DNA of 64,000 nucleotides from Escherichia coli (GTDB lineage Bacteria > Pseudomonadota > Gammaproteobacteria > Enterobacterales > Enterobacteriaceae), in assembly GCF_003334785.1 (NCBI RefSeq), contig NZ_QOWV01000007.1. The stretch is one strand, 5' to 3'. This document shows positions 815 through 55,959 of the stretch, piece after piece (position 1 is the stretch's first letter; each line of letters opens with the position of its first letter). The notes beneath the pieces are model-generated. The model was given only the letters and a program-made list of their open reading frames with translations, did no database searches and had not been told where the DNA came from. Made by a program: the position numbers and the translations under genes.

Positions 815-2212
815 ATTTTTACCCGAGTCGCTAATTTTTGCCGCAAGGTGCTAAGCCGCGAGGAAAGCGAGGCTGAACAGGCAGTCGCCCGTCCACAGGT
901 GACGGTGATCCCGCGTGAGCAGCATGCTATTTCCCGCAAAGATATCAGTGAAAATGCCCTGAAGGTAATGTACAGGCTCAATAAAGCGGGATACGAAGCC
1001 TGGCTGGTTGGCGGCGGCGTGCGCGACCTGTTACTTGGCAAAAAGCCGAAAGATTTTGACGTAACCACTAACGCCACGCCTGAGCAGGTGCGCAAACTGT
1101 TCCGTAACTGCCGCCTGGTGGGTCGCCGTTTCCGTCTGGCTCATGTAATGTTTGGCCCGGAGATTATCGAAGTTGCGACCTTCCGTGGACACCACGAAGG
1201 TAACGTCAGCGACCGCACGACCTCCCAACGCGGGCAAAACGGCATGTTGCTGCGCGACAACATTTTCGGCTCCATCGAAGAAGACGCCCAGCGCCGCGAT
1301 TTCACTATCAACAGCCTGTATTACAGCGTAGCGGATTTTACCGTCCGTGATTACGTTGGCGGCATGAAGGATCTGAAGGACGGCGTTATCCGTCTGATTG
1401 GTAACCCGGAAACGCGCTACCGTGAAGATCCGGTACGTATGCTGCGCGCGGTACGTTTTGCCGCCAAATTGGGTATGCGCATCAGCCCGGAAACCGCAGA
1501 ACCGATCCCTCGCCTCGCTACCCTGCTGAACGATATCCCACCGGCACGCCTGTTTGAAGAATCGCTTAAACTGCTACAAGCGGGCTACGGTTACGAAACC
1601 TATAAGCTGTTGTGTGAATATCATCTGTTCCAGCCGCTGTTCCCGACCATTACCCGCTACTTCACGGAAAATGGCGACAGCCCGATGGAGCGGATCATTG
1701 AACAGGTGCTGAAGAATACCGATACGCGTATCCATAACGATATGCGCGTGAACCCGGCGTTCCTGTTTGCCGCCATGTTCTGGTACCCACTGCTGGAGAC
1801 GGCACAGAAGATCGCCCAGGAAAGCGGCCTGACCTATCACGACGCTTTCGCGCTGGCGATGAACGACGTGCTGGACGAAGCCTGCCGTTCACTGGCAATC
1901 CCGAAACGTCTGACGACATTAACCCGCGATATCTGGCAGTTGCAGTTGCGTATGTCCCGTCGTCAGGGTAAACGCGCATGGAAACTGCTGGAGCATCCTA
2001 AGTTCCGTGCGGCTTATGACCTGTTGGCCTTGCGAGCTGAAGTTGAGCGTAACGCTGAACTGCAGCGTCTGGTGAAATGGTGGGGTGAGTTCCAGGTTTC
2101 CGCGCCACCAGACCAAAAAGGGATGCTCAACGAGCTGGATGAAGAACCGTCACCGCGTCGTCGTACTCGTCGTCCACGCAAACGCGCACCACGTCGTGAG
2201 GGTACCGCATGA
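815..2212 (+). CDS. pcnB: Poly(A) polymerase I
   Basis: ORF track 794..2212 starts at a TTG; the known protein N-terminus [12 protein letters not shown] corresponds to an AUU codon at 815..817. Nucleotidyltransferase motif [10 protein letters not shown]...DFD present. Confidence 0.9.
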
Positions 2213-2688
2213 CAGTGGCGTATATTGCCATAGGCAGCAATCTGGCCTCTCCGCTGGAGCAGGTCAATGCTGCCCTGAAAGCATTAGGCGATATCCCTGA
2301 AAGCCACATTCTTACCGTTTCTTCGTTTTACCGCACCCCACCGCTGGGGCCGCAAGATCAACCCGATTACTTAAACGCAGCCGTGGCGCTGGAAACCTCT
2401 CTTGCACCTGAAGAGCTACTCAATCACACACAGCGTATTGAATTGCAGCAAGGTCGCGTCCGCAAAGCTGAACGCTGGGGACCACGCACGCTGGATCTCG
2501 ACATCATGCTGTTTGGTAATGAAGTGATAAATACTGAACGCCTGACCGTTCCGCACTACGATATGAAGAATCGTGGATTTATGCTGTGGCCGCTGTTTGA
2601 AATCGCGCCGGAGTTGGTGTTTCCTGATGGGGAGATGTTGCGTCAAATCTTACATACAAGAGCATTTGACAAATTAAACAAATGGTAA
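2209..2688 (+). CDS. folK: 6-hydroxymethyl-7,8-dihydropterin pyrophosphokinase (HPPK)
   Basis: 159-aa ORF, full-length match to HPPK; start overlaps pcnB stop by 4 nt (ATGA). Confidence 0.95.
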
Positions 2689-2690
2689 TT

Positions 2691-2713
2691 TATTTATATT
2701 GCGAATATAAATA
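2691..2713. promoter_or_regulatory. Perfect AT-rich palindrome (10-bp arms, 3-bp centre) just downstream of folK stop
   Basis: tatttatatt-gcg-aatataaata read directly; left arm is the exact reverse complement of the right arm. Confidence 0.4.
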
Positions 2714-2852
2714 TTTTCTGAAAATCATATCTCATCTCTTTCCTTAATTACGATTTTAGTTTAAACATCTCTTTGCGGAAATAATATAACTTCCTATAAA
2801 TAAATATCAATCCCATCTCCATACCCTAACCAATTGCACTTGTGAACTTATT

Positions 2853-2877
2853 TTTACTTAATTTTGAATTAAGTAAA
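2853..2877. promoter_or_regulatory. Perfect AT-rich palindrome (11-bp arms, 3-bp centre) in yadN upstream region
   Basis: tttacttaatt-ttg-aattaagtaaa read directly; lies about 180 bp upstream of the yadN start in a 369-bp AT-rich intergenic region. Confidence 0.4.
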
Positions 2878-3057
2878 TTTAATTTGTTCAAAAGCTTCTA
2901 AAGTGCACAATAGGCGACCTAATGAACAATGGTTGTAAATTTGGGTAACAAATATCATTGCTCATTAATATCTAACATTTGTTTCTCCTATTTGTGTCAT
3001 GAATAGTCATTCTTCAAACATGTAGTCTGACTAATGGAATTTTATTAAAGGATTTTT

Positions 3058-3642
3058 ATGTCTAAAAAATTAGGTTTTGCCCTGTCTGGTCTTATGCTGG
3101 CGATGGTTGCAGGTACTGCTTCTGCTGATATGGACGGCGGTCAGTTAAATATCAGTGGTCTGGTTGTTGATAACACCTGTGAAACCCGCGTTGACGGCGG
3201 TAACAAGGATGGTCTGATCCTGCTGCAAACCGCAACCGTTGGTGAAATCGATGCTGGCGTACTGAATGACACCGTTGGCGCTAAAGCTAAACCTTTCAGC
3301 ATCACCGTTGACTGCAGCAAAGCAAATCCGAATCCAGGTAGCACGGCTAAAATGACCTTCGGTTCTGTTTTCTTTGGTAACAGCAAAGGGACTTTGAACA
3401 ACGACATGTCTATTAACAACCCATCTGACGGCGTTAATATCGCTCTACACAATATTGATGGTTCCACTATCAAACAGGTTCAAATTAACAACCCTGGCGA
3501 TGTGTATACTAAAGCCCTGGATGCAACGACAAAATCTGCTGTTTATGATTTTAAAGCGTCTTACGTTCGTGCCGTCGCAGACCAAACAGCAACTGCTGGT
3601 TATGTAAAAACTAACACTGCATACACCATTACTTATCAGTAA
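3058..3642 (+). CDS. yadN: Fimbrial major subunit (chaperone-usher pilin)
   Basis: 194 aa with signal peptide, conserved Cys pair and C-terminal donor-strand-type tail TAYTITYQ; first gene of a chaperone-usher operon. Confidence 0.9.
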
Positions 3643-3739
3643 GTATTCACCAGTTAAATTGATTGAATGAATATACAGGGAATAATAATTTCTATTTTAT
3701 ATTATTCCCTGTTTTAATTAACTCTATCAGGGATGGTTT

Positions 3740-4480
3740 ATGTTTTTTAACACCAAACATACAACAGCTTTATGCTTCGTAACCTGTATGGCTTTTAGTT
3801 CATCGTCTATTGCGGACATTGTCATTTCGGGTACTCGCGTAATATATAAAAGCGATCAAAAAAGTGTCAACGTACGTCTGGAAAATAAAGGGAATAACCC
3901 GTTGCTTGTCCAGAGTTGGTTAGATACTGGCGATGACAACGCTGAGCCTGGCAGTATTACAGTCCCTTTTACTGCTACGCCGCCAGTATCGCGTATTGAT
4001 GCCAAACGTGGGCAAACAATCAAATTAATGTACACAGCCAGCACCTCACTGCCTAAAGACAGAGAGAGCGTGTTCTGGTTTAACGTACTGGAAGTTCCAC
4101 CAAAACCAGATGCAGAAAAGGTCGCGAATCAAAGCCTGCTGCAACTGGCATTTCGCACACGTATAAAACTTTTCTATCGCCCGGATGGATTGAAGGGAAA
4201 TCCCTCTGAAGCCCCGTTAGCCCTGAAGTGGTTCTGGTCAGGTTCAGAAGGTAAGGCGTCATTACGAGTGACCAATCCAACCCCTTACTACGTCTCTTTT
4301 AGCAGTGGTGATTTAGAAGCTAGCGGTAAACGCTATCCGATTGATGTGAAAATGATTGCACCATTTAGTGATGAGGTCATGAAAGTCAATGGCCTTAATG
4401 GCAAAGCGAATTCTGCAAAAGTGCATTTTTACGCCATTAATGACTTTGGTGGCGCAATTGAAGGTAATGCCAGGCTGTAA
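3740..4480 (+). CDS. yadV: Periplasmic fimbrial chaperone (PapD-like)
   Basis: 246 aa with signal peptide and PapD-family chaperone fold; sits between pilin and usher genes. Confidence 0.9.
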   Translation: MFFNTKHTTALCFVTCMAFSSSSIADIVISGTRVIYKSDQKSVNVRLENKGNNPLLVQSWLDTGDDNAEPGSITVPFTATPPVSRIDAKRGQTIKLMYTASTSLPKDRESVFWFNVLEVPPKPDAEKVANQSLLQLAFRTRIKLFYRPDGLKGNPSEAPLALKWFWSGSEGKASLRVTNPTPYYVSFSSGDLEASGKRYPIDVKMIAPFSDEVMKVNGLNGKANSAKVHFYAINDFGGAIEGNARL

Positions 4481-4514
4481 TCAGGCAAGGATATAATTCC
4501 GCAGGAAGCATAGC

Positions 4515-7112
4515 GTGACTATAGAATATACTAAAAATTATCATCATCTGACCCGTATCGCCACGTTTTGCGCGCTGCTGTATTGCAATACTGCTTTCAG
4601 TGCTGAACTCGTTGAATATGACCATACCTTCCTGATGGGGCAGAATGCATCTAATATTGATCTCAGCCGGTACAGTGAAGGTAACCCCGCTATACCGGGT
4701 GTTTACGACGTCAGTGTTTATGTAAACGACCAACCAATCATTAACCAAAGTATTACATTTGTCGCAATTGAAGGAAAAAAGAACGCCCAGGCTTGTATCA
4801 CATTAAAGAATTTATTGCAGTTTCATATTAATTCTCCCGATATAAATAACGAAAAAGCCGTTCTGCTTGCCAGGGATGAAACGCTCGGCAATTGCCTCAA
4901 TTTGACGGAAATTATCCCTCAGGCTTCTGTTCGTTATGACGTTAACGATCAACGTCTGGATATAGACGTTCCTCAAGCCTGGGTAATGAAAAATTACCAA
5001 AACTATGTTGATCCATCGTTATGGGAAAACGGCATTAATGCGGCCATGTTGTCATACAACCTCAACGGATATCATAGTGAAACCCCTGGTCGAAAAAATG
5101 AAAGCATTTATGCTGCATTTAACGGTGGGATGAATTTAGGTGCATGGCGACTGCGTGCCTCGGGCAACTACAACTGGATGACCGATTCTGGCAGTAATTA
5201 TGATTTTAAGAATCGGTATGTTCAGCGTGATATCGCCTCGCTGCGTTCTCAACTCATTCTTGGTGAGTCTTATACGACGGGCGAAACCTTTGATTCCGTC
5301 AGTATCCGAGGCATTCGTTTATACAGTGACAGCCGCATGTTGCCTCCGACTTTAGCCAGCTTTGCGCCTATCATTCATGGCGTTGCCAATACCAACGCCA
5401 AAGTCACTATTACGCAAGGTGGCTATAAGATTTATGAAACGACGGTGCCGCCAGGCGCTTTCGTCATTGATGATCTGAGTCCGTCAGGGTACGGCAGCGA
5501 TCTTATTGTTACCATCGAAGAATCCGATGGCTCAAAGCGGACATTCTCGCAACCTTTCTCATCCGTTGTTCAAATGTTACGCCCTGGCGTTGGACGTTGG
5601 GATATTAGCGGCGGTCAGGTCTTAAAAGATGATATTCAGGATGAGCCTAATTTATTTCAAGCAAGCTACTACTACGGCCTGAATAACTATCTGACGGGTT
5701 ATACCGGTATTCAGATAACCGATAATAACTATACCGCTGGTTTGTTAGGTCTTGGTCTGAATACTTCAGTTGGTGCATTTTCTTTCGATGTGACTCATTC
5801 CAATGTTCGTATCCCGGATGATAAAACATACCAGGGGCAAAGTTATCGTGTTTCCTGGAACAAGTTATTCGAAGAAACAAGTACTTCACTGAATATCGCG
5901 GCCTATCGCTATTCGACACAGAATTACCTTGGTCTTAATGATGCACTAACTCTAATTGATGAAGTGAAACATCCCGAACAAGATCTTGAACCGAAATCCA
6001 TGCGTAATTACTCACGCATGAAAAATCAGGTTACGGTCAGTATTAACCAACCGTTGAAATTTGAGAAAAAAGATTACGGTTCATTTTATCTTTCCGGAAG
6101 TTGGTCCGATTACTGGGCTTCCGGACAAAATCGTAGCAATTACTCTATTGGCTACAGTAACAGTACATCCTGGGGCAGCTACAGTGTCAGTGCCCAGCGT
6201 TCATGGAATGAAGACGGCGACACTGACGATAGCGTTTATCTTAGTTTCACCATTCCAATTGAAAAATTACTTGGCACTGAACAACGTACTTCAGGTTTCC
6301 AGAGTATTGATACTCAAATAAGCAGTGACTTTAAGGGTAATAACCAACTCAACGTTAGCAGCAGTGGCTATAGCGATAACGCTCGCGTCAGTTATAGCGT
6401 GAATACTGGCTATACGATGAATAAAGCCAGCAAAGATTTGAGTTATGTTGGGGGTTATGCCAGCTATGAGTCACCATGGGGAACGCTGGCAGGTTCAATT
6501 TCTGCAAATAGCGATAACAGCCGTCAAGTTTCTCTCAGCACCGACGGTGGTTTTGTATTGCATAGCGGTGGACTGACTTTCAGTAATGATAGTTTTAGCG
6601 ACTCCGATACACTGGCGGTAGTTCAGGCTCCAGGTGCTCAAGGAGCGCGAATAAATTATGGCAACAGTACTATCGATCGATGGGGTTATGGTGTCACCAG
6701 CGCTCTTTCTCCTTATCATGAAAACCGTATCGCGCTGGATATCAACGATCTTGAGAACGATGTTGAATTAAAAAGTACCAGTGCAGTAGCTGTACCGCGT
6801 CAGGGTTCAGTCGTCTTTGCTGATTTTGAAACCGTGCAAGGGCAATCAGCCATTATGAACATCACACGAAGTGATGGTAAAAATATTCCATTTGCTGCAG
6901 ATATTTATGATGAGCAAGGCAATGTCATTGGTAATGTTGGACAGGGTGGACAAGCATTTGTTCGTGGTATTGAGCAGCAGGGAAATATCAGCATTAAATG
7001 GCTCGAACAAAGTAAACCCGTAAGTTGTCTTGCGCATTATCAACAAAGCCCAGAAGCAGAAAAAATAGCACAATCTATTATTCTGAATGGAATTCGGTGT
7101 CAGATTCAGTAA
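4515..7112 (+). CDS. htrE: Outer-membrane fimbrial usher
   Basis: 865-aa ORF with apparent GTG start; usher-family length and composition. Confidence 0.9.
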   Translation: MTIEYTKNYHHLTRIATFCALLYCNTAFSAELVEYDHTFLMGQNASNIDLSRYSEGNPAIPGVYDVSVYVNDQPIINQSITFVAIEGKKNAQACITLKNLLQFHINSPDINNEKAVLLARDETLGNCLNLTEIIPQASVRYDVNDQRLDIDVPQAWVMKNYQNYVDPSLWENGINAAMLSYNLNGYHSETPGRKNESIYAAFNGGMNLGAWRLRASGNYNWMTDSGSNYDFKNRYVQRDIASLRSQLILGESYTTGETFDSVSIRGIRLYSDSRMLPPTLASFAPIIHGVANTNAKVTITQGGYKIYETTVPPGAFVIDDLSPSGYGSDLIVTIEESDGSKRTFSQPFSSVVQMLRPGVGRWDISGGQVLKDDIQDEPNLFQASYYYGLNNYLTGYTGIQITDNNYTAGLLGLGLNTSVGAFSFDVTHSNVRIPDDKTYQGQSYRVSWNKLFEETSTSLNIAAYRYSTQNYLGLNDALTLIDEVKHPEQDLEPKSMRNYSRMKNQVTVSINQPLKFEKKDYGSFYLSGSWSDYWASGQNRSNYSIGYSNSTSWGSYSVSAQRSWNEDGDTDDSVYLSFTIPIEKLLGTEQRTSGFQSIDTQISSDFKGNNQLNVSSSGYSDNARVSYSVNTGYTMNKASKDLSYVGGYASYESPWGTLAGSISANSDNSRQVSLSTDGGFVLHSGGLTFSNDSFSDSDTLAVVQAPGAQGARINYGNSTIDRWGYGVTSALSPYHENRIALDINDLENDVELKSTSAVAVPRQGSVVFADFETVQGQSAIMNITRSDGKNIPFAADIYDEQGNVIGNVGQGGQAFVRGIEQQGNISIKWLEQSKPVSCLAHYQQSPEAEKIAQSIILNGIRCQIQ

Positions 7113-7128
7113 CTACAAGGGACGTCAA

Positions 7129-7698
7129 ATGATAAAAACAACGCCACATAAAATAGTGATACTGATGGGAATATTATTATCACCCTCAGTATTTGCAACG
7201 GATATTAATGTAGAGTTTACAGCCACTGTCAAAGCGACAACCTGTAACATCACACTTACTGGTAATAACGTCACGAATGATGGCAATAATAACTACACAT
7301 TGAGAATCCCTAAGATGGGTCTGGATAAGATCGCGAATAAAACGACAGAATCTCAGGCTGATTTTAAACTGGTTGCCAGTGGGTGCAGCAGTGGCATCAG
7401 TTGGATTGATACCACTCTGACCGGAAATGCATCATCAAGCTCACCTAAGCTTATTATACCGCAGTCTGGTGATTCATCTTCGACGACAAGTAATATCGGT
7501 ATGGGTTTCAAAAAACGGACTACTGATGATGCCACTTTCCTTAAACCTAACAGTGCGGAAAAGATACGCTGGAGCACAGACGAGATGCAGCCCGATAAGG
7601 GTCTTGAAATGACCGTTGCGCTACGTGAAACAGATGCAGGGCAAGGCGTACCGGGGAATTTTCGTGCACTGGCGACGTTTAATTTCATCTATCAATAA
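7129..7698 (+). CDS. yadM: Fimbrial-like minor subunit
   Basis: ORF track 7087..7698 trimmed to ATG at 7129 (MIKTTPHK..., signal peptide); C-terminal TFNFIYQ pilin tail. Confidence 0.85.
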   Translation: MIKTTPHKIVILMGILLSPSVFATDINVEFTATVKATTCNITLTGNNVTNDGNNNYTLRIPKMGLDKIANKTTESQADFKLVASGCSSGISWIDTTLTGNASSSSPKLIIPQSGDSSSTTSNIGMGFKKRTTDDATFLKPNSAEKIRWSTDEMQPDKGLEMTVALRETDAGQGVPGNFRALATFNFIYQ

Positions 7699-7709
7699 GA
7701 AGGATAATT

Positions 7710-8315
7710 ATGATGACATTTAAAAATTTACGTTATGGATTATCCAGCAGTGTCGTTTTGGCTGCCTCATTGTTCAGCGTACTCTCTTATGCGGCAACAG
7801 ACAGTATTGGACTGACCGTTATTACTACTGTAGAAATGGGTACTTGTACCGCTACATTAGTAAATGACTCTGATCAGGACATTTCTGTTGTTGATTTTGG
7901 TGATGTATATATTTCTGAAATCAATGCCAAGACCAAAGTAAAAACATTCAAACTCAAATTCAAAGACTGTGCGGGTATCCCCAATAAAAAAGCGCAAATA
8001 AAATTAACCAAGCGAGCCACATGCGAGGGAACTGCTAATGACGGTGCGGGGTTTGCAAATGGTTCCACAGCCGCAGATAAAGCAAGTGCTGTCGCCGTTG
8101 AAGTCTGGAGCACTGTAACTCCGGCAACAGGGAGTGCAACACAATTTAGCTGTGTAACACCAGCATCACAAGAGGTAACAATCTCCACTGCAGCCAATGC
8201 GGTCGTTTATTATCCGATGAGTGCACGCCTGGTCGTGGAAAAAAATAAAACCGTAAACAATGTCACTGCGGGTAAGTTTTCTGCACCAGCCACATTTACA
8301 GTAACCTATAACTAA
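7710..8315 (+). CDS. yadL: Fimbrial-like minor subunit
   Basis: 201 aa, signal peptide, C-terminal TFTVTYN pilin tail. Confidence 0.85.
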   Translation: MMTFKNLRYGLSSSVVLAASLFSVLSYAATDSIGLTVITTVEMGTCTATLVNDSDQDISVVDFGDVYISEINAKTKVKTFKLKFKDCAGIPNKKAQIKLTKRATCEGTANDGAGFANGSTAADKASAVAVEVWSTVTPATGSATQFSCVTPASQEVTISTAANAVVYYPMSARLVVEKNKTVNNVTAGKFSAPATFTVTYN

Positions 8316-8341
8316 CAGACTTACAGATTCAGGAACTATAT

Positions 8342-8938
8342 ATGCATCCCACTCAACGTAAGCTGATGAAGAGAATAATTCTGTTTCTGTCATTACTGTT
8401 TTGCATCGCCTGTCCAGCCATTGCTGGACAGGATATTGACCTTGTTGCCAATGTAAAAAACAGCACCTGCAAAAGCGGAATCAGTAACCAGGGTAATATT
8501 GATCTTGGCGTCGTTGGGGTGGGATATTTTTCAGGTAATGTTACTCCTGAAAGTTATCAACCAGGTGGAAAAGAGTTCACTATCACTGTATCCGACTGTG
8601 CATTACAGGGAACTGGCGATGTGCTAAATCAGTTACATATTGATTTTAGAGCCCTTAGCGGTGTCATGGCTGCTGGCTCTAGGCAAATATTTGCTAATGA
8701 AATTTCGTCAGGAGCAAGTAATGTAGGAGTAGTTATATTTTCTACTCAGGATTCGGCGAATACATTCAATGTTCTTAATGCTTCAGGCGGATCTCGTTCC
8801 GTTTATCCAGTAATGTCGGATGACATGAATGGTTCATCCTGGAAATTTAGCACCCGAATGCAAAAAATCGATCCTGCATTGAGTGTTACATCTGGTCAAC
8901 TTATGAGCCATGTGTTAGTGGATATTTACTACGAATAA
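8342..8938 (+). CDS. yadK: Fimbrial-like minor subunit
   Basis: 198 aa, signal peptide, pilin-like C-terminus. Confidence 0.85.
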   Translation: MHPTQRKLMKRIILFLSLLFCIACPAIAGQDIDLVANVKNSTCKSGISNQGNIDLGVVGVGYFSGNVTPESYQPGGKEFTITVSDCALQGTGDVLNQLHIDFRALSGVMAAGSRQIFANEISSGASNVGVVIFSTQDSANTFNVLNASGGSRSVYPVMSDDMNGSSWKFSTRMQKIDPALSVTSGQLMSHVLVDIYYE

Positions 8939-8987
8939 CAAACAAAAACAGCGCAAACCATAACAATAAAGAAACATTGGAGTAAAA

Positions 8988-10226
8988 ATGAAGACTATCT
9001 TCAGGTACATTCTTTTTTTAGCACTGTATTCTTGTTGTAATACAGTCAGTGCATATACAAGTTTTATTGTGGGAAATAATGCAGGAGTTGATAACTATCG
9101 AGGCCCCTCCACTGCCGCACAGATGACCTTTAATTACACATCAACAGCAAGCAACTTGGTTTTTTATAAACCCACGCAGCTCGGCCCGACTGGGGTAAAA
9201 ATGTACTGGTCATACCTGGATACAGGTACCGGTGGTGGTATTCTTTACTGCAATACATCTGGCAGAGCGAATCCTGGTCCAATAACTATTGAAAATGCCA
9301 TGGTCTATTCAGGTAAAGATTATGGCGGACATAAACTATTTAATACATCTGTTCCTGGTCTGTATTACACCATGTTAATATCAAGGGTCTGGTCTGCATA
9401 CGATACAATAACTGACATTCAATCGCCAGGAATCTATATCGGAGATCCTTCCAACCAAGAATTTTTCTTTTCCGTCACAGACAGCGATCTACAAACTAAG
9501 GGTTGCAACAAAGCAGACGACTACGATAAGTTTTGGGCTATTGGTGGTATAGTACACAACATAACTGTTGAATTTTATACAGATACTAATTTCGATCCTA
9601 CACTTAATCAGCAAGTCCAGTTATCCAGTTCATCAAATTACCTTTATTCGTTTAAGGCCTACAGTCCTGGTACAAAAGTTGTAGATCACAGCAACCACAT
9701 TTATGTCAATTTCACACTGAATAATGTCAAATTAACCTTACCAACATGTTTTACCTCCATACTTACCGGGCCATCAGTCAATGGTTCAACGGTTAGAATG
9801 GGAGAATATAGCTCTGGGACAATTAAAAATGGCGCTTCACCTGTTCCCTTTGATATCTCGCTTCAGAATTGTATTCGTGTGCGTAATATTGAAACAAAAC
9901 TCGTCACTGGAAAAGTAGGTACTCAAAACACACAACTGCTTGGTAATACGCTTACTGGAAGCACTGCCGCCAAAGGCGTTGGCGTACTCATTGAAGGTTT
10001 AGCAACCAGTAAAAATCCGCTAATGACATTAAAACCTAATGATACGAATTCTGTTTATATAGATTATGAAACCGAAGATGACACCTCCGATGGGGTTTAC
10101 CCTAATCAAGGTAACGGCACATCACAGCCTCTTCATTTCCAGGCAACATTAAAGCAAGACGGGAATATTGCTATCGAACCCGGCGAATTTAAAGCCACCA
10201 GTACTTTCCAGGTAACCTATCCCTGA
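8988..10226 (+). CDS. yadC: Putative fimbrial tip adhesin (two-domain pilin-like protein)
   Basis: 412 aa, signal peptide, C-terminal TFQVTYP pilin tail with a long N-terminal extension typical of tip adhesins. Confidence 0.85.
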
Positions 10227-10229
10227 TAA

Positions 10230-10266
10230 CGTAGCAGCACTGTCACCTTCTGGCAGTGCTGCTACG
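10230..10266 (+). terminator. Hairpin downstream of yadC (13-bp perfect stem), candidate terminator of the yad operon
   Basis: cgtagcagcactg / cagtgctgctacg inverted repeat read directly; no strong U-run, so intrinsic termination is uncertain. Confidence 0.4.
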
Positions 10267-10339
10267 GATAAATCATTGCCCCCACCAATGTGACTGATAA
10301 AATGCCAGACAGCACAACATCAATTTATCAGGATACGTT

Positions 10340-11134
10340 ATGAAACCGACCACCATCTCCTTACTGCAGAAGTACAAACAGGAAAAAAAACGTTTCGCGA
10401 CCATCACCGCTTATGACTATAGCTTCGCCAAACTCTTTGCTGATGAAGGGCTTAACGTCATGCTGGTGGGCGATTCGCTGGGCATGACGGTTCAGGGGCA
10501 CGACTCCACCCTGCCAGTTACCGTTGCCGATATCGCCTACCACACTGCCGCCGTACGTCGCGGCGCACCAAACTGCCTGCTGCTGGCTGACCTGCCGTTT
10601 ATGGCGTATGCCACGCCGGAACAAGCCTTCGAAAACGCCGCAACGGTTATGCGTGCCGGTGCTAACATGGTCAAAATTGAAGGCGGTGAGTGGCTGGTAG
10701 AAACCGTACAAATGCTGACCGAACGTGCCGTTCCTGTATGTGGTCACTTAGGTTTAACACCACAGTCAGTGAATATTTTCGGTGGCTACAAAGTTCAGGG
10801 GCGCGGCGATGAAGCGGGCGATCAACTGCTCAGCGATGCATTAGCCTTAGAAGCTGCTGGGGCACAGCTGCTGGTGCTGGAATGCGTGCCGGTTGAACTG
10901 GCAAAACGTATTACCGAAGCACTGGCGATCCCGGTTATTGGCATTGGCGCAGGCAACGTCACTGACGGGCAGATCCTCGTGATGCACGACGCCTTTGGTA
11001 TTACCGGCGGTCACATTCCTAAATTCGCTAAAAATTTCCTCGCCGAAACGGGCGACATCCGCGCGGCTGTGCGGCAGTATATGGCTGAAGTGGAGTCCGG
11101 CGTTTATCCGGGCGAAGAACACAGTTTCCATTAA
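10340..11134 (+). CDS. panB: 3-methyl-2-oxobutanoate hydroxymethyltransferase
   Basis: 264 aa, full-length match to PanB. Confidence 0.95.
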
Positions 11135-11145
11135 GGAGTCACGTT

Positions 11146-36924: not shown

Positions 36925-37084
36925 GGGTTATTCCTTATCTATCTAATAACGTTGAGTTTTCTGGAACCTGTCCCATTGAACTCTCGCCGGAAAGCTCAAT
37001 AAGACAGGTTCTACGTTTAGTTGCCGCGCTTTTATATGCGCTTGATTTACAACATCTTCTGGATAATTTTTACCAGAAAAATCA

Positions 37085-48304: not shown

Positions 48305-48507
<203 letters not shown>

Positions 48508-48512
<5 letters not shown>

Positions 48513-48897: not shown

Positions 48898-48918
48898 TGT
48901 CTTAAACCTATAAAAAAG

Positions 48919-48936
48919 GCGCAGAATCCTGCGCCT
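48919..48936 (-). terminator. Hairpin with flanking U/A runs between secA and mutT
   Basis: aaaaaa-ggcgca-gaatcc-tgcgcc-tttt read directly. Confidence 0.55.
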
Positions 48937-48956
48937 TTTACTTCAACAGTTAGCTT

Positions 48957-51662
48957 TTATTGCAGGCGGCCATGGCACTGCTTGTATTTTTTACCAGAAC
49001 CGCACGGGCAAGGATCGTTACGTCCTACTTTGCGCTCTCCGGTTTGCGCCGCCAGTGCAGCTGCGGCTGCAGAGTCGTCATCCTGATGGCTAAGCTGCTG
49101 CATTTGCGCTAAACGCTCGGCTTCCATACGACGCTGTTGTTCCAGCTCCTCAACCTCTTCAGGCATACGTACCTGAACTTTGCTCAGCGTACTGATAACT
49201 TCATATTTCAACGACTCCAGCATCGCTGCAAACATGGAGAACGATTCACGTTTGTATTCCTGCTTCGGATCTTTCTGTGCGTAGCCACGCAGGTGGATAC
49301 CCTGACGCAGATAGTCCATCGCTGCCAGGTGCTCTTTCCACAGGGAGTCAAGCGTTTGCAGCATGACGCCTTTCTCGAAGTGACGCATCATCTCAGCACC
49401 AACCACTTCTTCTTTACGCTGATACACTTCGATGGACTGCGCCAGAATGCGCTCACGCAGCGTCTCTTCATGCAGTTCTGGTTCTTTATCCAGCCACTCG
49501 GCAATTGGCAAATCGAGGTCGAAATCGTTCTTCAGACGTTCCTGCAGCCCCGGAATATCCCACATTTCTTCCAGCGACTGTGGTGGAATGTAGGCATCAA
49601 TGGTCGCTTTGAACACATCTTCACGAATGCTGTTAATGGTTTCGCTCACATCGCTGACATCCAACAGTTCGTTACGCTGGGAGTAAATGGCGCGACGCTG
49701 ATCGTTAGCCACGTCATCATATTCCAGCAGTTGCTTACGAATGTCGAAGTTACGGCTTTCAACTTTACGCTGGGCGTTGGCAATCGCTTTAGTCACCCAC
49801 GGGTGTTCAATGGCTTCGCCTGGCTTCATACCCAGTTTACGCATCATGCCGGATACTCGGTCGGAAGCAAAAATACGCATCAGCGCATCTTCCATCGACA
49901 GGTAGAAACGGGAAGAACCAGCATCCCCCTGACGACCAGAACGACCGCGCAACTGGTTATCGATACGACGGGATTCGTGACGCTCGGTACCGATGATATG
50001 CAGGCCACCTGCTTCCAGTACCGCATCGTGACGTACCTGCCAGTCGGCTTTAATTTTTTCAATTTGCTCTGCGGTCGGATTTTCCAGCGCGGCAACTTCT
50101 GCCTGCCAGCTACCACCGAGCACAATATCTGTACCACGACCCGCCATATTGGTCGCGATAGTCACCGCAGCCGGATAACCTGCCTGAGCAACAATCGCCG
50201 CTTCGTTGGCGTGGAATTTGGCGTTCAGGACGTTGTGCTTAATACCGGCTTTGGTCAGTTCGTTTGACACCAGCTCCGATTTTTCGATGGAGATAGTACC
50301 CACCAGCACCGGCTGGCCTTTCGCAGTACGTTCTTTGATATCTTCAATGATCGCCTGAATTTTTTCCGCTTCAGTCATGTAGACCAGGTCCGGCAGATCT
50401 TTACGAATCATTGGACGGTTGGTCGGAACAACGACGGTATCCAGCTTGTAGATTGAGCTAAATTCGAAAGCTTCGGTATCAGCAGTACCGGTCATCCCCG
50501 CCAGTTTTTCATACAGACGGAAGTAGTTCTGGAAGGTGATCGAAGCCAGCGTTTGGTTTTCGTTCTGGATCTGCACACCTTCTTTCGCTTCCACAGCCTG
50601 GTGCAGACCATCGGACCAGCGACGGCCCTGCATGGTACGACCGGTGTGTTCGTCAACGATGATAACTTCACCATCTTTAACGATGTAGTCGACGTCACGG
50701 GTAAACAGCGCATGAGCGCGCAGCGCCGCCGTTACGTGGTGCATCAGCATGATGTTGGCCGGAGAGTACAGAGACTCCCCTTCATCCATGATGCCCTCTT
50801 TCACCAGCAGTTCTTCAATCAGCACCAGACCACGTTCGGTCAGGTTCACCTGGCGAGATTTTTCGTCCACCGAGAAGTGGCCTTCGCCCTGGAAGGTTTC
50901 GGAGTCTTCTTTTTCCTGACGGATCAGGTGCGGAATAATTTTATTCACGCGTTTATACATTTCCGAGCTGTCTTCTGCCGGGCCGGAAATGATCAGCGGT
51001 GTACGCGCTTCATCGATCAGGATGGAGTCCACTTCGTCCACCAGCGCATAGTGCAGTTTACGCTGTACACGTTCTTCAGGGCTGAACGCCATGTTGTCGC
51101 GCAGGTAGTCAAAGCCGTATTCGTTGTTCGTACCGTAAGTGATGTCAGCTGCGTAAGCTTCGCGCTTTGCCGGTGCTGGCATGCCCGGCAGGTTGATACC
51201 GACAGTCAGGCCAAGGAATTCAAACAGCGGACGGTTGTTTTCGGCGTCACGTTGCGCCAGGTAGTCGTTGACGGTAACTACGTGCACGCCTTTACCGGTT
51301 AGTGCGTTCAGGTAAGCAGGCAGCGTTGCGGTCAGGGTTTTTCCTTCACCGGTACGCATTTCGGCGATGCAGCGTTCGTTAAGAACCATACCGCCGAGTA
51401 ACTGAACGTCGAAGTGACGCATACCAAAGACGCGCTTACTTGCCTCACGTACCACGGCGAAAGCTTCCGGGATCAGATTTTCCAGCACTTCGCCTTTTTC
51501 CAGACGTGCACGAAACTCTGCGGTTTTCCCTTTCAGTTCTTCGTCGGAGAGTTTTTCCATCTCCGGTTCCATGGCATTGATGATGTTGACCACTTTGCGC
51601 ATCCGGCGCAGGGTGCGATCGTTACGACTACCGAAAACTTTAGTTAACAATTTGATTAGCAT
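48957..51662 (-). CDS. secA: Preprotein translocase ATPase SecA
   Basis: 901 aa; C-terminal zinc-binding [14 protein letters not shown]. Confidence 0.97.
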
Positions 51663-53484: not shown

Positions 53485-54636
53485 TTAATCAGCTTGCTTA
53501 CGCAGGAATGCTGGGATATCCAGATAATCCGGCTCTTTCGCAGTTTGCGGCGCATTGTCATTCACGACTTTAGCAACCGGCTTCTGCTCCTGGGTCAGCG
53601 GAGCCATCCCATGCTGCTGGTAGCGATCCATCACTGGCTGCTGAACCTGCTTATTGGTCACCAGAGTGATTTCAGGACGTTTGTCCATGCCGATACCTGT
53701 CGCAACAACGGTTACGCGCAGCTCGTCATTCATATCCGGGTCAAGAGAAGTACCGATAACCACAGTCGCGTTGTCGGAAGCAAATGCACGGATGGTGTTA
53801 CCTACCGTTTCGAACTCATCCAGACGCAGGTCGAAGCCCGCCGTGATGTTAACCAGCACGCCGCGCGCGCCAGACAGGTCGATATCTTCCAGCAGCGGAG
53901 AAGAGATAGCCATTTCAGCAGCTTCTTCCGCACGGTCTTCACCGCTCGCCACGCCAGAACCCATCATTGCGTAGCCCATCTCAGACATTACGGTGCGTAC
54001 GTCTGCAAAGTCCACGTTCATCAAACCCGGACGAGTAATCAGTTCAGCGATACCTTGCACAGCGCCTTTCAGTACATCGTTCGCTGCGCCAAACGCATCC
54101 AGCAGGGAGATACCGCGGCCCAGAACTTTCAGCAGTTTGTCGTTCGGGATAGTGATCAGAGAGTCCACATGCTTGGACAGTTCAGTGATCCCCTGCTCCG
54201 CGAATGCCATACGCTTCTTGCCTTCAAAGTTGAAAGGCTTAGTGACGACAGCAACGGTCAGGATACCCAAATCTTTTGCCACTTCAGCGACGACTGGTGC
54301 TGCACCTGTACCGGTACCACCACCCATACCCGCAGCAATAAAGACCATGTCTGCACCTTCCAGCGCCGCACGCAATGCATCGCGATCCTCATCAGCCGCA
54401 TTGCGGCCAACTTCTGGATTAGCGCCAGCGCCCAGTCCTTTGGTGATACCGCTACCGATTTGAATCGTCTGTCCAACCGCTGTTTTACGCAGCGCTTGTG
54501 CATCGGTATTTACCGCGAAGAATTCAACACCTTCAATGCGCTCGCGCACCATGTGTTCAACAGCATTACCGCCGCCGCCGCCGACGCCGATGACTTTAAT
54601 CACCGCGTCATTGGTAAGTTCCATTGGTTCAAACAT
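53485..54636 (-). CDS. ftsZ: Cell division GTPase FtsZ
   Basis: 383 aa; tubulin signature GGGTGTG. Confidence 0.98.
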
Positions 54637-54696
54637 AGTTTCTCTCCGATTTGTGCCTGTCGCCTGAGGCCGTAATCATCGTCGGCCTCATAAAAA

Positions 54697-55959
54697 TTAA
54701 AACTCTTTTCGCAGCCAACTATTGAGTCGCTTGATCCACGAGCCAACTGATGCTGTAACACGTTTTTCTACTTCAGCTTCACCGTTAAGATGTGACTCTT
54801 TCCCATAGTGAAGCAATCCCACCGCCGTCGAATAATACGGCTCCTGAGCATAATCCGTTAAACCGGTAATGTTCAGCGGCGCGCCGATACGCACTTGCGT
54901 ATGAAACACGCGCTGAGCACAGGCTGCAAGACCTTCGATCTGCGCTGCGCCACCGGTTAATACAATGCCTGCCGCCAGGTGATGTTTAACCCCTTGTTGG
55001 CGAAGCTTTTCCTGCAACTGCAATATCTCTTCGTTGACCAGGTTGAGCAGCTCGGTATAGCGCGGCTCGATCACCTCTGCCAGTGTCTGACGTTGCAGAC
55101 TCCGTGGCGGACGACCACCTACGCTCGGCACTTCCACGCTCTCATCTTTTCCAACGATGGAACCCAGCGCACAACCGTGGCGAACTTTAATCGCTTCGGC
55201 GTCGCTTGGCGGCGTGCCAAAGGCGTAAGCGATATCACTGGTCACGACATTGCCAGCATAAGGAATTACCTTAGTGTGGCGCAATGCCCCACCGGTATAA
55301 ACGGCGATATCCATTGTACCACCACCGATATCGACGACGCAGACACCCAGTTCACGTTCATCTTCCGTCAATACCGAATAACTTGATGCCAGTCCGGCAA
55401 ATATCAGTTGGTCAACTTTCAGCCCACAACGTTCAACCGCTTTGACGATGTTTTTCGCCATATCGTTGTGACATGTGATCAGGTGCACTTTTGCCTGCAT
55501 CCGCACGCCCGAAAGTCCTACCGGATTCTTGATCCCTTCCTGATAGTCAATCGCATACTCTTGCGGGATCACATGCAGCACACGATGCTCATCGCGCACA
55601 CGCACCGATTTCGCGGTATGGACGACGTTTTCCACATCTTCTTGCGTCACTTCTTCTTCAGAAATAGGCACCATACCAATTTCATTCTGGCAGCTGATGT
55701 GCTTACCAGAAAGCGCCAGATATACCGAAGAGATCTGACAATCTGCCATCAATTCTGCCTGGTCAATGGCGCGTTGTACGCACTTGACCACGGATTCGAG
55801 GTCGTTCACCCCGCCTTTATCCATACCACGCGACGGGCAGCTGCCCACGCCAATGATATTGACCATACCGTCGGGCAGAACTTCCCCTACTAAAGCGGCA
55901 ACCTTCGCGGTACCAATCTCCAGTCCTACTACCAGTTTTCTGTCCGTCGCCTTGATCAT
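54697..55959 (-). CDS. ftsA: Cell division protein FtsA (actin-like ATPase)
   Basis: 420 aa; 4-nt overlap with ftsQ. Confidence 0.97.

Follow-up and report, generated by a model that had tools for sequence, protein, structure and literature searches.

Seven intact, co-oriented genes, yadN-yadV-htrE-yadM-yadL-yadK-yadC, occupy positions 3058-10226 on the plus strand of the window, the 64,000-nucleotide stretch of an Escherichia coli contig (NZ_QOWV01000007.1) analysed here, as an open reading frame check showed. The genes are flanked by folK upstream and panB downstream, as in MG1655, and form a compact one-strand cluster with intergenic gaps of 97, 34, 16, 11, 26, and 49 nt in order from yadN through yadC. 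The genes and associated elements are listed below.

2689-3057, plus strand: folK-yadN intergenic region, taken as promoter and leader of yad; 369 nt, AT-rich (26.6% GC)
3058-3642, plus strand: yadN, major pilin, 194 aa, predicted signal peptide 1-23, Cys41-Cys86, C-terminus TITYQ
3675-3715, plus strand: terminator-like hairpin in the yadN-yadV gap, 13-bp stem and 12-nt loop, then TTTT
3740-4480, plus strand: yadV (ecpD in older annotation), periplasmic PapD-like chaperone, 246 aa (NCBIfam NF007398)
4515-7112, plus strand: htrE, outer-membrane usher, 865 aa, GTG start (Pfam and NCBIfam NF007337)
7129-7698, plus strand: yadM, minor pilin, 189 aa, extension TDINVEFTATVKATTC, Cys39-Cys86, C-terminus FIYQ
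7710-8315, plus strand: yadL, minor pilin, 201 aa, extension ATDSIGLTVITTVEMGTC, four Cys, C-terminus TVTYN
8342-8938, plus strand: yadK, minor pilin, 198 aa, extension GQDIDLVANVKNSTC, Cys43-Cys86, C-terminus IYYE
8988-10226, plus strand: yadC, two-domain tip adhesin, 412 aa, domains by Pfam and AF2 models
10230-10266, plus strand: perfect hairpin at the operon 3' end, 16-bp stem (inverted repeat I8), starting 3 nt past the yadC stop

Across 9501 nt, positions 1941-11441 of the window showed 0 mismatches to NC_000913.3 148500-158000 in reverse complement, and the genes are b0141-b0135 of E. coli K-12 MG1655 in the NC_000913.3 annotation, at 100% identity. Only annotation details vary between records: yadC starts at ATG 8988 in MG1655 and at an in-frame ATT (8976) in a PGAP record, and yadM starts at 7129 in RefSeq, with AAGGGA upstream, while the longest open reading frame begins at 7087. 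The GC content of the yad island is 41.7%, compared to 53.7% in the flanking core genes. YadV, HtrE, YadL, YadC, and YadK all scored above curated NCBIfam cut-offs, the first four at near or full length, and the operon is not a chance pattern. The open reading frames, the MG1655 identity, and the profiles thus confirm the original prediction of a seven-gene operon with these gene identities, encoding one chaperone, one usher, and five pilin-like proteins. Our analysis establishes which genes these are, what domains they encode, and that their catalytic and structural motifs are conserved.

Chaperone, usher, and pilin subunits

YadV matched its NCBIfam profile at 472 bits over residues 1-246 of 246 (cut-off 285). 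PDB 5GHU, 'Probable fimbrial chaperone YadV', is an exact match to residues 26-246 of the protein, and the D26 start of that construct fits signal cleavage after A25. The nearest structures after 5GHU were CupB2 of Pseudomonas aeruginosa (E 8e-48), then PapD and FimC, and the subunit-anchoring pair of PapD, R8 and K112, aligns with YadV residues R33 and K143. Mature YadV contains no cysteine, as expected in short-loop (FGS) chaperones, and it scored far higher against CupB2, PapD, and FimC than against Caf1M, which is of the long-loop type. The cluster probably belongs to the gamma-4, short-loop chaperone type, the usher clade being that assigned to Yad in PMC7098969 and in the Nuccio scheme as used in PMC3559732.

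HtrE contains PapC_N (residues 34-185, E 6e-45), Usher (199-771, E 9e-158), and PapC_C (780-844, E 2.5e-19) Pfam domains, matched its NCBIfam profile at 1701 bits over residues 3-865 of 865, and gave full-length matches to solved structures of FimD (E 1e-126 to 1e-128) and PapC (E 4e-79).

The Pfam Fimbrial domain (PF00419) was detected in YadN (residues 31-194, E 9.8e-12), YadM (29-189, E 1.6e-25), YadL (51-201, E 3.6e-10), and YadK (37-197, E 2.6e-5). YadL matched NF011795, 'fimbrial-like protein YadL', at 448 bits (cut-off 392) and YadK matched NF011794 at 311 bits (cut-off 132); the best match of YadN was to StaA (E 2e-35), and those of YadM were to StaD (E 3e-43) and FimF (E 7e-6), all three under the curated cut-offs. 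Pairwise BLASTP among the seven Yad proteins revealed no significant similarity between any two of the five pilin-like proteins (E > 0.06), which leaves profile matches and fold as the evidence for their common origin. At the N-terminus of all seven proteins a hydrophobic core precedes a small-x-small site, a signal-peptide-like arrangement by a heuristic criterion, which supports the predicted signal peptide on each pilin-like protein.

YadN, YadM, YadL, and YadK each carry a 14-17-residue extension with alternating hydrophobics before the first cysteine, a cysteine pair, and a penultimate tyrosine, and the Y-x C-termini of the Yad pilin domains are kept in five other alleles. In chaperone-usher pili such as Pap and Fim, the next subunit supplies its N-terminal extension as the donor strand, while the conserved C-terminal strand with its penultimate tyrosine is part of the acceptor fold, lining the groove and anchoring to chaperone Arg8/Lys112. 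The five C-terminal tails (those of the four pilins, and QVTYP in YadC) had been quoted exactly beforehand but described as donor-strand-type; by the Pap and Fim model the tail is instead the acceptor-groove strand, and the N-terminal extension is the donor.

The pilins had also been called unusually many, which would make yad an atypical, expanded chaperone-usher architecture. Its seven genes do exceed the K-12 mean of ~5.3 per operon (64 genes in 12 operons; PMC8174762), but fim in the same genome combines five pilin-domain genes (fimA, I, F, G, and H) with a chaperone and an usher, the same composition, and yfc also has five subunit genes. The Salmonella counterpart of yad is the Sta cluster, and divergent operons at folK-panB in other strains (L008 and L009) share the seven-gene layout without change. 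The fim and yfc comparisons refute the expanded architecture, which we regard as scarcely credible.

Resemblance to Sta (staABCDEFG) extends to the subunits, as the best non-self NCBIfam matches of YadN, YadM, and YadL were StaA, StaD, and StaE, and Sta has been described as the Salmonella counterpart of Yad, with a core-associated locus and usher clade in common (PMC3559732). Type 1 fimbriae (fimAICDFGH) have the parts list of yad, in which a major pilin and minor pilins are served by a PapD-like chaperone and an usher, and the two-domain tip adhesin is encoded last. Their assembly chemistry is common as well (HtrE-FimD E 1e-126; YadV-FimC E 1e-26), but yad has no fimI-like gene between its major pilin and chaperone, lacks an invertible promoter switch and the fimB/fimE recombinases, and is reported in the literature not to be phase-variable.

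The tip adhesin and variable minor pilins

In YadC the signal peptide (residues 1-22) precedes a receptor-binding (lectin) domain (~23-246), which is followed by a pilin domain (~247-412); the PF00419 match is limited to residues 265-411, and the protein scored 885 bits against its NCBIfam profile. A phmmer search of PDB sequences found no relatives of YadC, YadN, or YadM. Fold searches with AF2 models of YadC gave full-length matches to FimH, PapG, and CupB6, of which the P. aeruginosa CupB6 tip adhesin had the top TM-score (TMq 0.37), and matches to the receptor-binding domains of Abp1D, UclD, AtfE, LpfD, MrkD, and GafD. At ~224 aa the lectin domain is larger than its type 1 counterpart and has at most 12% identity to solved adhesin domains; in the model the N-terminus lies inside the lectin fold, leaving no free extension. 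These results support the two-domain reading of the 412-aa protein. YadC ligands have been published, namely D-xylose-containing glycans and annexin A2 (PMC6921372; PMC13245861), so the earlier description of receptor specificity as not settled is not supported.

YadK, YadL, and YadM were far more variable among strains than the core proteins, with amino acid identities of 71-77% in L003 and 41-49% in L008 and L009; yadK, at 83-85% in two closer alleles, was more variable there than yadN, yadV, htrE, yadM, or yadL. High variability of the minor subunits has been noted previously (PMC13245861). One explanation is that Yad forms a polyadhesive fibre in which at least one of YadK, YadL, and YadM binds a receptor, so that the number of pilins reflects several specificities rather than adaptors. 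Acid stress has been found to induce Yad fimbriae in O157:H7, with adhesion boosted only under acid stress, according to the account of Chingcuanco 2012 in PMC7098969, which would also fit such a fibre. However, all three minor pilins are single-domain proteins of ~170 mature residues with no additional domain, antigenic selection or hitch-hiking with yadC would explain their variability equally well, and the ligand data in the literature we examined concern YadC only. The work of Chingcuanco 2012 reportedly concerned yadK specifically. We consider a polyadhesive fibre distinctly unlikely, and prefer the reading of YadK, YadL, and YadM as adaptors beneath a single YadC adhesin.

Silencing and RNA hairpins

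The AT-rich folK-yadN intergenic region is probably an H-NS nucleation region. When hns is deleted, yad promoter activity rises over 100-fold and YadN appears on the cell surface, and H-NS repression of the yadN promoter region has been demonstrated experimentally (PMC13245861). The operon is cryptic under laboratory conditions (PMC3559732), as originally predicted. Transcription would begin in the AT-rich region upstream of yadN, with H-NS silencing in standard laboratory conditions that may be lifted by environmental or host cues.

Consensus matches to sigma-70-like promoters in the folK-yadN leader were not above chance, so no yad promoter could be assigned, and a consensus promoter and terminator scan of positions 2500-10500 gave match counts at or below shuffle expectation. 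The RfaH ops element (GGCGGTAG) was absent from the leader; the only exact match in the region, at 6614 within htrE, was put down to chance. Rfam gathering and tRNA scans returned nothing within the yad region, and a repeat search revealed just short chance repeats besides the hairpin after yadC.

Two hairpins were detected. The first follows yadN in the 97-nt gap before yadV, and the terminator scan missed it because its loop exceeds 8 nt; the RNA at 3630-3745 folds at -25.6 kcal/mol (z = -2.55). Its stem and T-run are kept in three diverged alleles, where indels alter the loop and one G-C pair becomes G-U, while the divergent L008 and L009 operons have a different GC-rich hairpin and T-run at the equivalent position. 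We suggest that this hairpin may act as a partial terminator or 3'-end stabiliser, and that with its T-run it probably holds major-pilin mRNA in excess over the downstream genes.

Conservation of position despite differing sequence could also point to a regulated rather than passive attenuator, which we find doubtful. If this were the case, host cues such as serum would alter read-through into yadV-htrE-yadMLKC beyond the relief of H-NS, and therefore fibre number, length, or tip composition; it could also account for the uneven induction of individual yad genes that has been noted (PMC13245861).

The second hairpin, after yadC, folds at -31.4 kcal/mol (z = -5.88), and 0 of 200 shuffles folded as well. 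Because no T-tract follows it, this is not a canonical intrinsic terminator, and the terminator scan likewise missed it; it may be a transcript-end or stabiliser structure at the operon 3' end.

Fibre assembly and the standing of the operon

On our reading, all seven Yad proteins would be exported via Sec. The YadV G1 strand would fill the groove left by the incomplete Ig fold of each pilin in the periplasm, with Arg33 and Lys143 anchoring the C-terminal carboxylate of the subunit, and HtrE would recruit the chaperone-subunit complexes at the outer membrane, where the N-terminal extension of an incoming subunit ousts the chaperone strand from the previous one by donor-strand exchange. YadC would enter first and end at the tip because its receptor-binding domain replaces the extension. 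YadK, YadL, and YadM would come next, making up a short stretch of adaptor or tip, before YadN polymerises into a thin, flexible shaft. Gene order, read as in fimF-fimG-fimH, suggests the subunit order YadC-YadK-YadL-YadM-YadN(n).

Such fibres have been observed. Induced Yad expression gave thin, flexible fibres by TEM, likened to those seen in K-12 by Korea 2010 and Larsonneur 2016 (PMC7098969), and constitutive K-12 yad expression, in those two studies as cited in PMC7098969, gave thin, flexible fimbriae by electron microscopy, in contrast to the rigid rods of type 1. YadN, the named major subunit of ~21 kDa, has been detected on the surface, also by ELISA (PMC13245861). The checks that had been proposed as pending have thus all been reported already: electron microscopy after forced expression, derepression in the absence of H-NS, and YadC binding.

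These observations bear on whether yad in K-12 is instead a decaying, non-functional remnant, silent since it no longer works, with its intact frames incidental. Its crypticity in the laboratory (PMC3559732) and the slight growth gain upon yad deletion (PMC8174762) would fit decay, and so would disruptions common in other strains, including IS1, ISVsa5, and IS3 insertions and a frameshifted yadV in strain MB07081. Yet no frame among the seven is broken, curated profiles are matched at full length, the key residues of YadV are conserved, at least 80% of the yad region is present in 3912 of 5426 complete genomes, and the literature records both fibres on forced expression, including from a constitutive promoter in K-12, and infection-model phenotypes. 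We regard decay as highly improbable and a silenced, working operon as the better reading.

Every classical chaperone-usher trait we looked for was found: a chaperone, a three-domain usher, pilins, a two-domain tip adhesin, and a co-oriented cluster. Fibre assembly, H-NS repression, and YadC ligands are documented in the literature (PMC7098969, PMC13245861, PMC6921372). We are very nearly certain that the locus is the classical chaperone-usher fimbrial operon yad of E. coli K-12, with assembly, regulation, and ligands as proposed. None of our results ran counter to this reading. The operon, including its assembly, regulation, and adhesin ligands, is already known and studied experimentally, and because the window holds the K-12 reference copy, locating it brings no new biology; its worth is as a correctly annotated example of yad. 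Minor additions here are the conserved-position hairpin after yadN, the strong hairpin after yadC, and the divergent operons at folK-panB. As an adhesin, Yad fimbriae are widespread in E. coli; the literature ties them to colonisation of the bladder, bloodstream infection, disease in birds, and environmental persistence, and YadC has been put forward as an anti-adhesion drug target.

Identity and layout of the yad operon

The seven plus-strand reading frames of the chaperone–usher fimbrial operon at 3058–10226 were all intact, at the coordinates that the original prediction implied:

3058–3642, plus strand: yadN, pilin gene
3740–4480, plus strand: yadV, chaperone gene
4515–7112, plus strand: htrE, usher gene with a GTG start
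7129–7698, plus strand: yadM, pilin gene
7710–8315, plus strand: yadL, pilin gene
8342–8938, plus strand: yadK, pilin gene
8988–10226, plus strand: yadC, predicted adhesin gene

The gaps between them measured, from yadN to yadC, 97, 34, 16, 11, 26, and 49 nt. Positions 1941–11441 were identical to the reverse complement of MG1655 NC_000913.3 148500–158000 (0 mismatches in 9501 nt), in which RefSeq annotates the yad genes as b0141–b0135. This confirms the prediction and makes the region the reference copy of an operon that is already known, named, and studied by experiment. Using a query that also took in the folK and panB ends, we found at least 80% of the region in 3912 of 5426 complete E. 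coli genomes and a match to at least part of it in 5324.

In the PGAP record of NEBExpress (WP_284729375.1), the yadC start is an ATT at 8976, in frame with the ATG at 8988 and four codons ahead of it. MG1655 uses this ATG, which has a GGAG 6 nt upstream and looks like the better start. The annotated start of pcnB (815–2212) is an ATT codon at 815, which fits the reported non-canonical AUU start of this gene, and the mechanical ORF list begins at TTG 794. Beyond the operon, rpnC (yadD; 12071–12973, minus strand) lies between panC and panD, and its product belongs to the transposase-like Rpn family of recombination-promoting nucleases. Elsewhere outside yad, Rfam families scoring above their gathering threshold were the tp2 sRNA, two adjacent naRNA4 copies, STnc40, and PssrA, located at 36927–37040 (plus), 48315–48508 (minus), 48912–48981 (minus), and 54628–54717 (minus).

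Subunits and fibre assembly

YadN, YadM, YadL, and YadK each matched Pfam PF00419, and each combines a predicted signal peptide, a 14–17-residue alternating-hydrophobic stretch before the first cysteine, a cysteine pair, and a penultimate tyrosine at the C-terminus. In Pap and Fim assembly, the donor strand is the N-terminal extension and the conserved C-terminal strand is part of the acceptor fold, so the description of the Yad C-terminal tails as donor-strand-type had the two ends reversed. Pairwise BLASTP among the five pilin-domain proteins, YadC included, gave no significant pair, and it is profile and fold matches that support their being paralogues. Nor is their number unusually high, as had been claimed: the fim operon of the same genome likewise combines a chaperone and an usher with five genes for pilin-domain proteins (fimA, I, F, G, and H), and the yfc operon also has five subunit genes. 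The Salmonella counterpart of Yad is the Sta cluster (PMC3559732), and YadN, YadM, and YadL match StaA, StaD, and StaE.

The PF00419 match in YadC was confined to residues 265–411. The YadC alignment comprised 30 homologues from the protein search, and the full-length AlphaFold2 model had a mean pLDDT of 84.7. Among PDB structures, Foldseek matched this model best to the two-domain adhesins FimH, PapG, CupB6, FocH, and CfaE, and its C-terminal part reached target-normalised TM-scores of 0.63–0.77 against FimA, FimF, FimG, and FimI; together with the C-terminal PF00419 domain, the adhesin matches of this model support the two-domain YadC predicted originally. YadC has been shown to bind D-xylose and annexin A2 and to matter for bladder colonisation (PMC6921372; also PMC13245861).

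YadV scored 472 bits over its full length against NCBIfam NF007398, and over residues 26–246 it has the same sequence as PDB 5GHU ("Probable fimbrial chaperone YadV"), after which the closest solved structures were CupB2, PapD, and FimC. Its R33 and K143 align with R8 and K112 of mature PapD, the pair that anchors the subunit C-terminal carboxylate in the Pap system. HtrE contains all three usher domains, PapC_N, Usher, and PapC_C, and the FimD and PapC structures align with it end to end. The composition of one chaperone and one usher was as predicted.

The operon almost certainly encodes a standard chaperone–usher fimbria silenced by H-NS. Subunits would be joined by donor-strand complementation and exchange, with YadC at the fibre tip, YadK, YadL, and YadM as adaptors in an order suggested by gene order, and YadN making the shaft, and environmental or host cues would lift the silencing.

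Silencing, expression, and hairpins

The 7.65-kb yad island has 41.7% GC, against a mean of 53.7% in the flanking core genes folK and panB, and the 369-nt folK–yadN spacer has 26.6%. This low GC fits H-NS silencing, which has been demonstrated experimentally: in an hns deletion, the activity of the yad promoter rose more than 100-fold and YadN appeared on the cell surface, and serum induced the operon further (PMC13245861). Induced expression produced thin, flexible fibres in TEM, likened to the K-12 fibres of Korea 2010 and Larsonneur 2016 (PMC7098969). Forced expression with electron microscopy, H-NS derepression, and YadC binding, proposed as tests at the outset, had thus all been reported already. 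Unlikely or already refuted are the readings that rival a standard Yad fimbria, namely that the operon is a dead remnant, that the fibre is polyadhesive, or that the architecture is an expanded one. A consensus promoter scan of the yad region gave matches at chance level, and no RfaH ops element was found in the yad leader.

Inside the yadN–yadV gap, positions 3675–3715 form a 13-bp hairpin with TTTT directly behind it. Three diverged alleles keep the stem and the T-run, and their loops vary by insertions and deletions; the very divergent folK–panB operons have another hairpin, GC-rich and with its own T-run, at the same post-yadN position. We infer a putative partial terminator or stabiliser that may keep the major-pilin message in excess; comparable elements downstream of major-subunit genes have been described in other pilus operons. 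In type 1 fimbriae, whose major pilin is FimA, RefSeq annotates a 35-nt sRNA, FimR2, directly after fimA in the fimA–fimI gap (L006, the K-12 fim region, 1675–1709), which is the same relative position as that of the yadN hairpin. Additionally, a perfect 16-bp hairpin without a T-tract (10230–10266; z = −5.9) begins 3 nt past the yadC stop codon.

Variation between strains

Amino-acid identity to K-12 across three other alleles was 87–100% for YadN, 87–98% for HtrE, 77–99% for YadM, 71–98% for YadL, 77–85% for YadK, and 63–69% for YadC, and 85–93% for YadV in two alleles, the third being frameshifted. Within YadC, the lectin domain was more variable (53–67% identity) than the pilin domain (75–78%), independently reproducing the published pattern (PMC13245861). 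The locus is often inactivated: in several strains (matches H1, H4, and H5 of the complete-genome search), the yad match overlaps annotated IS1, ISVsa5, and IS3-family elements, and the seawater isolate MB07081 has a frameshifted yadV (L005:2646–3375). FolK (2209–2688), encoded on the promoter side of yad, was in K-12 90–92% identical in amino acids to that of four of five other strains and 96% to that of MB07081, against 97–100% for PanB on the other side in the strains compared, a difference that suggests, from sequence comparison, that old, divergent yad-locus haplotypes extend into folK.

Between folK and panB, two genomes carry a seven-gene operon with the K-12 gene order (L008:2916–9881 and L009:10432–17408) and had no nucleotide similarity to K-12 yad detectable by megablast. 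Amino-acid identity to K-12 was 59–60% for the usher, 60–63% for the chaperone, and 41–49% for the pilins, and the 370-aa adhesin was 26–28% identical to YadC. "Yad-positive" strains have been scored by 80% HtrE identity (PMC13245861), and surveys that use this threshold may call strains with such operons negative.
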